From NCBI GenBank assembly GCA_040437565.1, contig JBDOQK010000026.1, positions 310,001-374,000 of the forward strand: a DNA stretch of 64,000 bases, given 5' to 3'. The notes below the pieces were generated by a model that searched no databases, was not told the DNA's origin, and saw only the letters and a list, made by a program, of their open reading frames with translations. How positions within the stretch are numbered: the stretch's first letter is position 1; every line of letters starts with the position of its first letter. Of the stretch, positions 42,714 to 43,745 are shown one piece after another. Made by a program: the position numbers and the translations under genes. The DNA is from Albugo candida (lineage: Eukaryota).

Positions 42714-43745
42714 CTATAAGTGCCTAGCGCGTTTCCATGGGCCACAAGCTAGCTCGGAATTGCATTCATCTACTATTGCACGCTTTTCTTCCCAATAATC
42801 AGCACATGAATCGTTCTTAACACGCTCAAGAGTCCGTTTTGGATTTCGAGTGCGAAGACTGGGCACAGTGTCCAAGAACGCTTGACTGGGATGTTTAGGA
42901 AATTCCAGATCGTAAAAGATTCCTCCTTGAAGCATACGCTGTACCTAAGTACAACTCCATCAAAAGAATTGATCTATAACCAACAGAGTGTGCAATTAAC
43001 CTGATCGCAAAAACTCTGAGGATCTTGTTTCAATTGCTCGGAAGCTTGCTTGTTCAGAATAGTGTCTATTCCAGGCTCAATGAAGATGAGCTAGATACAC
43101 CTGTGAGTAAAACACTGATTTCTTTATCGTGAATAGCGTACTTGAAGGGCCAATAAGACGGTATTTATGGTCAACACTGGACGCCAATCCTTTCCAAGAA
43201 TAGAGATCATAACTTTGCCTGTGACGACGTCGATATTTGGATGCCAAACTCTAGAATACCATAACAATGTCAAAAGTACTCCATTCGATAAGGCTGAGAT
43301 AATACCTGGTTAAGCTCGTGACACTGGGCGCTAGTAGGAATGAAGTATGTTAGCATCGTGTCATTACGTTTGGATCCAACTGCAGTGACTTACGAGAGAA
43401 TGGATACGTCTTTGGAATTTCGATATAAAATGTGAAGTTTCCATTTTTGTACGGTCCGTCATCGTCGAGAATTCTTATTCTAACCAACAGATGAAGCATA
43501 TTTTCTATCCCATCCGGAAAGTCAATACGGGTTTGCGCGTGCTGACATGAGAACTTGGATTTCGCAAGCTATAAGAGAGTATATAAATGAGTATTATAGT
43601 TACGGGTAAGTTATCGACGTACTTCACTTATATCCTTACGAACTCGTAAGGACGTCAAGTCTGTTTGTGTATGATTCATCATCAGCGAGTGACTTGGTCC
43701 TTGTCGATGAGATACCGGTACATAGTTCCCGCTACTAGCCTCCAT
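42714..43745 (-). CDS. Ubc12/UBE2M-like E2 fold protein lacking the catalytic Cys; six exons, 250 aa
   Basis: Exons 43745-43623, 43568-43394, 43330-43306, 43250-43142, 43090-43001, 42944-42714 give LRVRKDISEL...GPYKNGNFTF.....YPFSPPSV..LTRVWHPNIDVVTGKVMISILGKDWRPVLTINTV...LQLIFIEP....LNK.A...L......F..QVQR.LQGG. Confidence 0.88.

Follow-up and report, generated by a model that had tools for sequence, protein, structure and literature searches.

A six-exon Albugo candida gene for a Ubc12-like protein without the catalytic cysteine, and the old clade to which it belongs

The gene considered here lies in a 64,000-nucleotide stretch of the Albugo candida genome (contig JBDOQK010000026.1 of assembly GCA_040437565.1, positions 310,001 to 374,000), referred to below as the window, whose coordinates are used throughout. 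It occupies 43745-42714 on the minus strand and encodes an E2-like protein closest to Ubc12, the E2 conjugating enzyme of the NEDD8 pathway, in which the aligned catalytic Cys is replaced by Met; a canonical E2 thioester is therefore impossible for the protein as predicted. The explanation that we favor, with a probability of roughly 0.6, is that of a single spliced, expressed, six-exon gene for a Ubc12-derived pseudo-E2 with a putative binding role. A preliminary description of the locus had already proposed a Ubc12-like pseudo-E2 with Met for Cys, and this stands at its core; its scope was too narrow, however, as the gene belongs to a large and old clade in which the residue at the site is variable.

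The novelty is accordingly the family rather than the single Albugo gene. This family of dead Ubc12 copies is apparently undescribed so far: a search of the full-text literature found no account of a Ubc12-like or NEDD8-branch pseudo-E2, with the proviso that Michelle et al. (2009) and Burroughs et al. (2008) may list one. The E2 of PMC12007708 is of the DUF2009 type and unrelated.

Gene structure and its support in assembled contigs

Rebuilt from window coordinates, the gene has five introns, all GT..AG and of 54, 63, 55, 51, and 56 nt, and a spliced coding sequence (CDS) of 753 nt that translates into 250 amino acids with no internal stops. The five canonical introns of 51-63 nt and the stop-free 250-residue protein of the preliminary description are thereby reproduced, and the ATG that it had placed at the Ubc12 Cys position, at 43208-43210 with a twin at 44097-44099, is exact to the base. 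The features of the gene, all on the minus strand, are as follows.

43745-43623, minus strand: exon 1, 123 nt; start ATG at 43743-43745, Albugo-specific residues 1-24, then the first part of helix 1 (LRVRKDISE)
43568-43394, minus strand: exon 2, 175 nt; clade-specific insert that follows helix 1 and contains Cys49; also strands 1-3 and the YPF loop
43330-43306, minus strand: exon 3, a 25-nt micro-exon; both adjoining joints are present in the X1 and X3 contigs
43250-43142, minus strand: exon 4, 109 nt; HPN (43243-43235), a loop longer by one residue, Met122, and DWRPVLTIN
43208-43210, minus strand: ATG codon of Met122 (read 43210-43208), aligned with Cys111 of human UBE2M
43090-43001, minus strand: exon 5, 90 nt; helices 2-3, with GIDTI in place of the canonical NPxDP loop
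42944-42714, minus strand: exon 6, 231 nt; last helix, Ubc12-type GG hairpin, disordered tail, and stop TAG at 42716-42714
42881-42717, minus strand: disordered tail, about residues 196-250, within exon 6
42734-42723, minus strand: terminal KRAR, within exon 6
43622-43569 (54 nt), 43393-43331 (63), 43305-43251 (55), 43141-43091 (51), and 43000-42945 (56), minus strand: GT-AG introns

Protein searches with the 61-residue stop-to-stop frame containing exon 4, and afterwards with the complete sequence, led to NCBI 'hypothetical protein ABG067_004117 [Albugo candida]', which is 250 residues long and identical to the spliced protein (100% identity over 100% of the length). The gene had been thought hidden from annotation; it is in fact an annotated protein already, and by this match the Albugo candida annotators arrived at the same exon model.

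In contigs from X1 and X3, two public runs that belong to a single study, the five predicted introns are missing to the base and there are no other differences; the missing parts have CT..AC ends on the plus strand. A 46-kb contig of a further run (X7) is the unspliced form of the locus, and X5 yielded two short, low-depth, unspliced pieces only. Contigs that lack five introns at their exact borders are best explained as spliced RNA, although a processed DNA copy is a formal alternative. In these presumed RNA contigs all five joints of the originally proposed exon model are exact, and the gene, which had been called intact, is spliced as predicted with its frame open.

The codon itself is unchanged in the contigs of X1, X3, X5, and X7, which represent four runs and three studies; all read ATG, and the TGT or TGC that would have spoken against the preliminary description was seen in none of them. 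ATG has no base in common with TGT or TGC at any position, and the Met can therefore not stem from an error in one base. Between the X7 contig and the window there are three differences; two fall within the CDS, namely the synonymous H51H and the conservative D29E.

A duplicated contig end

The minus-strand stop-to-stop frames show pieces of the gene twice, one set on each side of a scaffold gap. The window as a whole, with a G+C content of about 42%, has nine gaps of 100 N, and exact duplicates flank five of them.

43774-43873, no strand: scaffold gap of 100 N
43874-44662, minus strand: exact 789-nt repeat of 42985-43773, carrying exons 1-5 again; unmerged contig overlap
12471-12570, 17829-17928, 36056-36155, 43774-43873, and 60209-60308, no strand: gaps flanked by duplicates of 940, 1576, 1598, 789, and 94 nt, respectively

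The repeats at the gaps are unmerged contig overlaps left by the scaffolder, and genes near those gaps therefore appear partly doubled; there is a single pseudo-E2 gene. We rejected a second gene copy at 43874-44662, which is an exact overlap across a 100-N gap and includes the Met122 codon twin at 44097-44099. The true upstream flank of the gene resumes at 44663.

Kinship with Ubc12 by sequence and fold

In Pfam the full protein matches UQ_con alone (E 2.2e-31, residues 34-177), the tail being without a match, and exon 2 taken alone gives UQ_con at E 5.9e-5, below the cut-off. A HMMER comparison with PDB sequences sets Met122 opposite the Cys of human UBE2M in ...GNVCLNIL... (1y8x_A, E 3.1e-29), and the bit scores are highest for human UBE2M (105.1), followed by UBE2K (88), yeast Ubc12 (78), and UBE2F (3fn1_B, 64.6). 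An AlphaFold2 model built on a 98-row alignment, with a mean predicted local distance difference test score (pLDDT) of 83.9 and a predicted template modeling score of 0.71, is confident for residues from about 31 to 195 and disordered on both sides; ten-residue block means over residues 31-190 are 82-98, and 93-98 except for block 41-50. The four best Foldseek matches in PDB are human UBC12 chains (2nvu_C, 1y8x_A, and 4p5o chains) with target-normalized template modeling scores of 0.82-0.85, three of the four having root-mean-square deviations of 1.9-2.3 Å over 160-162 columns. The kinship with the NEDD8 E2 that was first read from the letters is thus borne out by sequence and fold, as it is by the tree below, with UBE2M/Ubc12 closest in each. 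A tblastn search of the 64-kb window with three canonical Ubc12-type proteins found the pseudo-E2 locus and no other E2.

Comparison with named E2 families sharpens this placement. The pseudo-E2 and Ubc12/UBE2M have in common HPN, DW[KR]PVL[ST]IN, and the C-terminal GG hairpin, whereas the pseudo-E2 has Met for Cys, one more residue in the loop from HPN to the site, and YPF where the canonical proteins have YPH. UBE2F, the second NEDD8 E2 of animals and a Cys-bearing enzyme, shares the UBC fold, and the Aphanomyces cochlioides orthologue is called 'NEDD8-conjugating enzyme ube2f' by its source; that name appears to be an automatic label, and UBE2F is a far weaker match than UBE2M (64.6 against 105.1 bits). 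UBE2K (E2-25K) is the second-best PDB family, but it has the Cys (a ubiquitin-conjugated C92K mutant is among the PDB entries) and carries a UBA domain, and the DWRPVLSIN block and C-terminal hairpin of the pseudo-E2 are Ubc12-like and unlike UBE2K.

The UEV proteins (Mms2/Uev1, COP10, the UEV domain of TSG101, and AKTIP/FTS) likewise conserve an E2 fold without the catalytic Cys and act by binding; COP10 works in a cullin-4-associated complex and offers a precedent for a pseudo-E2 on cullin ligases. The pseudo-E2 differs from them in an independent origin (it branches with Ubc12, in a tree that was built without Mms2, Uev1, and TSG101), in keeping HPN, and in its own KRxR tail, and no UEV, Mms2, or TSG101 name occurs among the 60 PDB sequences listed, the best 60 of 272 matched. 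As far as its sequence goes, the protein is of UEV type by function class and outside the Mms2/Uev1 and TSG101 families by descent.

An old clade of cysteine-less Ubc12 relatives

Relatives were gathered by several searches. A word-limited search gave 28 proteins from 315 candidates, and all the named ones carry Met at the site. HMMER, run exhaustively over 1.84 billion cluster representatives, yielded 10152 matches at E ≤ 0.001; an alignment search with 35 diverse clade members, in which 8000 candidates were scored and 31 passed 1e-10, added the chlorarachniophyte Norrisiella sphaerica; and matches in the ESM Atlas were generic UQ_con clusters only. The site residue was read by aligning 178 collected proteins to Met122. 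It is Cys in 59, Met in 26, and some other residue in 88, with 5 proteins unaligned at the site. The other residues are S (15), A (14), H (12), R (10), Y (8), G (7), and Q (5), and more rarely L and F (4 each), D, K, E, and T (2 each), and N (1). All 26 proteins with Met have an oomycete-type sequence context, and every oomycete-type sequence examined has Met, so that the orthologues lack the Cys as well, a point that the preliminary description had left to be checked. We considered Met as a special functional replacement and rejected this idea, given that the site residue varies across the clade; Met is therefore the oomycete state.

In a FastTree phylogeny of the 135 rows with a full core, which omits rows whose local alignment does not span it, 94 Cys-less rows form one clade with a support of 100 and a branch length of 0.54. 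Two further rows with Gly or Arg at the Cys column (P0137 and P0130) sit singly inside canonical Ubc12 and represent either sporadic independent Cys losses or sequence errors. In a quick IQ-TREE analysis of 78 rows, hand-picked for spread, the 42 Cys-less rows group with a Shimodaira-Hasegawa-like approximate likelihood ratio test support of 90 and the 21 canonical rows with 94, and the two together are separated from 15 outgroup E2s with a support of 99; the E2 phylogeny that had been suggested as a check thus groups the pseudo-E2 with canonical Ubc12. Oomycetes are one group in this tree (support 89) within a starred 26-row set that also holds named ochrophytes, and the branching order inside the oomycete group matches the expected species order.

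The Albugo protein falls inside the clade in both trees, with M122, an HPNIDVVTGKV loop with TG, and an exact terminal KRAR; its core is 33% identical to that of the chlorarachniophyte member and 41% identical to that of a canonical Ubc12. On this evidence, the Albugo gene is placed as the oomycete branch of an old Cys-less clade that is sister to canonical Ubc12. Besides oomycetes, the named members comprise five ochrophyte algal lineages (Pelagophyceae sp. CCMP2097, Ectocarpus species, Chattonella subsalsa, Heterosigma akashiwo, and Octactis speculum) and one rhizarian, Norrisiella sphaerica; the remaining members come mostly from marine or freshwater assemblies. Judged by these sequences, the clade has members among stramenopiles, at least one rhizarian, and a large number of eukaryotic sequences of mostly aquatic origin.

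Within oomycetes, Met and an open frame are common to orthologues in at least 10 named genera, with sources that include Phytophthora (several species), Peronospora, Hyaloperonospora, Bremia, Plasmopara, Globisporangium, '[Pythium] brassicae', Aphanomyces, Saprolegnia, and Achlya. M122, K245, R246, and R248 are invariant in all 16 aligned oomycete sequences. The 168 core columns of 19 oomycete rows include 57 without any variation and 98 with at least 80% conservation, against just 8 of 55 tail columns that reach 80%; such a pattern of core and tail conservation fits purifying selection. That the protein is a conserved non-catalytic paralogue we regard as highly probable.

Catalytic features kept, lost, and gained

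We compared the core consensus of 19 oomycete, 58 other Cys-less, and 21 canonical rows. Common to both clades are the helix-1 motif LR..KD..EL, the YP(F/H) loop, HPN, the W-x-PV loop (W130 and P132), and the C-terminal GG hairpin; in the 98 sequences H111 and P112 are invariant and N113 is at least 90% conserved. Missing from the Cys-less clade are the Cys, the Asn that stands two positions further on (canonical CLNIL), and the PNp.DPLN loop; the clade consensus is a variable site residue followed by l-p and then EP......N, which in Albugo read MISIL and GIDTILN. Three of the four catalytic fingerprints are thus gone and HPN is kept. The clade has gained one residue in the loop from HPN to the site and a six-residue insert after helix 1. 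A Cys within this insert (C49 in Albugo, in exon 2) is present in 95% of the 19 oomycete rows, 40% of the 58 other Cys-less rows, and 0 of the 21 canonical rows.

A different Cys at the active site would have told against the preliminary description; none lies within eight alignment columns of the site in any of the 19 oomycete rows. Among the 58 non-oomycete rows the site residue is Ser in 11, and 16 non-oomycete rows have a Cys within those eight columns, in 14 of the 16 two residues past the HPN Asn (HPN[IVM]C). The members with this pattern are P0042, P0043, P0048, P0049, P0059, P0066, P0068, P0091, P0103, P0106, P0108, P0111, P0122, and P0142. Close to the old active site as it is, their Cys could be a relocated nucleophile; the pattern was not found in any oomycete sequence examined.

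A shortened N-terminus and a tail with KRxR motifs

The two clades differ most plainly at their ends. The residues before helix 1 have a median of 12 in 96 Cys-less rows (a set that includes P0137 and P0130) against 56 in 39 canonical rows, the tail after the core has a median of 109.5 residues against 8, and an exact KRxR occurs in 70 of the 96 Cys-less tails against 0 of the 39 canonical ones. The oomycete orthologues begin MYMRSDFAALRVRKD, 8-10 residues ahead of helix 1, and the Ubc12-type N-terminal extension is absent; Met22/Met23 of the Albugo protein align with their start Met, and the first 24 Albugo residues are unique, with a low pLDDT of 62-69. In Ubc12 the N-terminal extension docks on a groove of the E1 and on DCN1. 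Because the orthologues are without it, the earlier suggestion of a decoy for DCN1 or the E1 groove is disfavored.

The extra basic C-terminal tail of the preliminary description is confirmed, and the KRxR at its end is shared by all 16 oomycete sequences aligned. We assessed KRxR enrichment in 58 representatives whose tails are 30 residues or longer against 500 composition-preserving shuffles: 43 of the 58 tails hold the motif (61 motifs in all), compared with 3.2 ± 1.7 tails in the shuffles, where the maximum was 9. The first KRxR stands a median of 25 residues past the core, and the ten residues that follow it are 26% acidic, against 12% for the tails overall. In Albugo the tail extends for 64 residues after the core, and its last motif, KRAR, is exact. 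KRxR fits the classical nuclear localization signal (NLS) consensus, K-K/R-x-K/R.

Several stramenopile members have a hydrophobic pattern of the nuclear export signal (NES) type between two KRxR motifs, and such a pattern occurs in 20 of the 58 tails against 9.4 ± 2.7 in shuffles. The order of KRxR, hydrophobic pattern, and KRxR suggests a candidate NLS-NES-NLS layout. Examples of the pattern are ...LEAMRIQ... and ...IEHMTIS..., and tails that show it include those of P0037, P0181/P0036, P0046, P0052, P0038, P0005, and P0018.

Proposed role and alternative explanations

In active E2s, helix 1, the YPF loop, and the W-x-PV loop contact RING domains and the ubiquitin-fold domain (UFD) of the E1. 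The pseudo-E2 would work through binding, without catalysis, by way of the same retained surfaces: the helix-1 motif LRxxKDxxEL, the YPF loop, and the W-x-PV loop. Its KRxR motifs would carry it into the nucleus, where it would most likely serve as an adaptor or competitor at cullin-RBX1, at another RING protein, or at the NEDD8 E1. The parts of this proposal differ in strength. Going by the tail motif, the chances that the protein is nuclear are about even; that its partners belong to the NEDD8/cullin pathway is a tentative assignment, with the odds somewhat against it, and binding to RBX1 or to the E1 UFD is possible. Broader still, and rather doubtful, is the suggestion that the clade represents a class of Ubc12-derived pseudo-E2s, as wide as the stramenopile-alveolate-rhizarian group or older, whose tails with KRxR, NES-like, and KRxR elements would make them shuttling nuclear regulators of cullin neddylation.

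Several points weigh against our interpretation. The RNA nature of X1 and X3 is a guess, as it is for all of X1-X6, none of which is on record as RNA. A long-branch effect could account in part for the position of the clade as sister to all canonical Ubc12, and the IQ-TREE clade supports of 90 and 94 are unstarred. To our knowledge it is unusual for a UEV to keep HPN without the Cys, and the retained motif could mean that the old site still does something. The first KRxR of the Albugo tail is degenerate (KRTL), the terminal KRAR alone being exact, and the putative NLS is so read from the general consensus only. A working UBC12 beside the pseudo-E2 in Albugo candida is assumed.

The chief rival is that the UBC fold now serves as a binding module in some process outside NEDD8 and cullins, in which case the likeness to Ubc12 would reflect descent only. 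Cys-less E2 folds have been put to such uses before, AKTIP/FTS in the Hook complex and TSG101 in ESCRT-I being examples, and the clade is old and fast-evolving by the core identities given above, has lost the N-terminal extension, and has acquired both a family-specific insert after helix 1 and a tail with linear motifs of its own. The surfaces that contact the E1 and RING domains nevertheless remain conserved in the clade (the helix-1 motif, YPF, and W-x-PV), as does the Ubc12-specific C-terminal GG hairpin, and we consider this alternative less probable than our own reading, if the strongest of those weighed here.

The remaining two alternatives are unlikely. The protein might still be an enzyme that uses another nucleophile, whether Cys49, a Ser at the site, or the Cys two past the HPN Asn, and the invariant or nearly invariant HPN and the frequencies of these residues given above lend this some color. 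The site residue is however unconstrained (S, H, A, Y, R, D, G, Q, F, E, L, K, N, or T), no oomycete row has a Cys inside eight columns of it, Saprolegnia diclina lacks Cys49, which we take from the general E2 fold to lie on the face opposite the active site, and neither the acidic loop residue nor the Asn that follows the Cys is retained; we hold continued catalysis to be very improbable. Least credible of all is an artefact, in the form of a sequencing or assembly error at the codon, a wrong gene model, or a decaying pseudogene: the locus does adjoin a scaffold gap with a duplicated contig end, and X7, the best DNA source, may be the source sample itself, but ATG and the Cys codons differ at every base, both copies are identical across 789 nt, contigs from four runs and three studies concur at the codon, the five splice joints are exact, and Met with an open frame recurs in the oomycete genera listed above.

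If the wider suggestion of Ubc12-derived nuclear regulators holds, oomycete pathogens and many algae would have non-catalytic partners or competitors of RBX1 or the NEDD8 E1, and with them an additional level of control over cullin ligases that is absent from animals, fungi, and plants. Were cullin neddylation the regulated process, this would be a lineage-specific control point, present in brown algae, in raphidophytes and pelagophytes that form blooms, and in oomycetes that attack crops; nature would also have put to the test which surfaces of Ubc12 count once catalysis is set aside. Were the role to lie elsewhere, the clade would still show plainly that the E2 fold has been reused repeatedly. 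Within the ubiquitin system, pseudo-enzymes (among them Mms2/Uev1, COP10, and TSG101) have proved to be specificity factors and not debris, and the KRxR tail motif makes localization directly testable.

Neighboring features in the window

The downstream neighbor on the minus strand starts at about 42605, about 110 nt past the pseudo-E2 stop. An RNA-like X1/X3 contig spans 42444-42610, and the match of its loose end to 42361-42390 implies a 53-nt intron at 42391-42443 in this neighbor. On the other side, the spliced X1 contig extends 434 letters past 43773 (44663-45096 in the right-hand contig), which reflects either an unusually long 5' untranslated region of at least about 460 nt or a merger with the transcript of the upstream gene, whose open reading frame ends at about 45400.

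Two further frames were judged by eye from their translations.

36890-38110, minus strand: long FG-repeat (GFSFG) frame, nucleoporin-like
48954-50975, plus strand: 673-residue frame like a 2,4-dienoyl-CoA reductase/old-yellow-enzyme fusion

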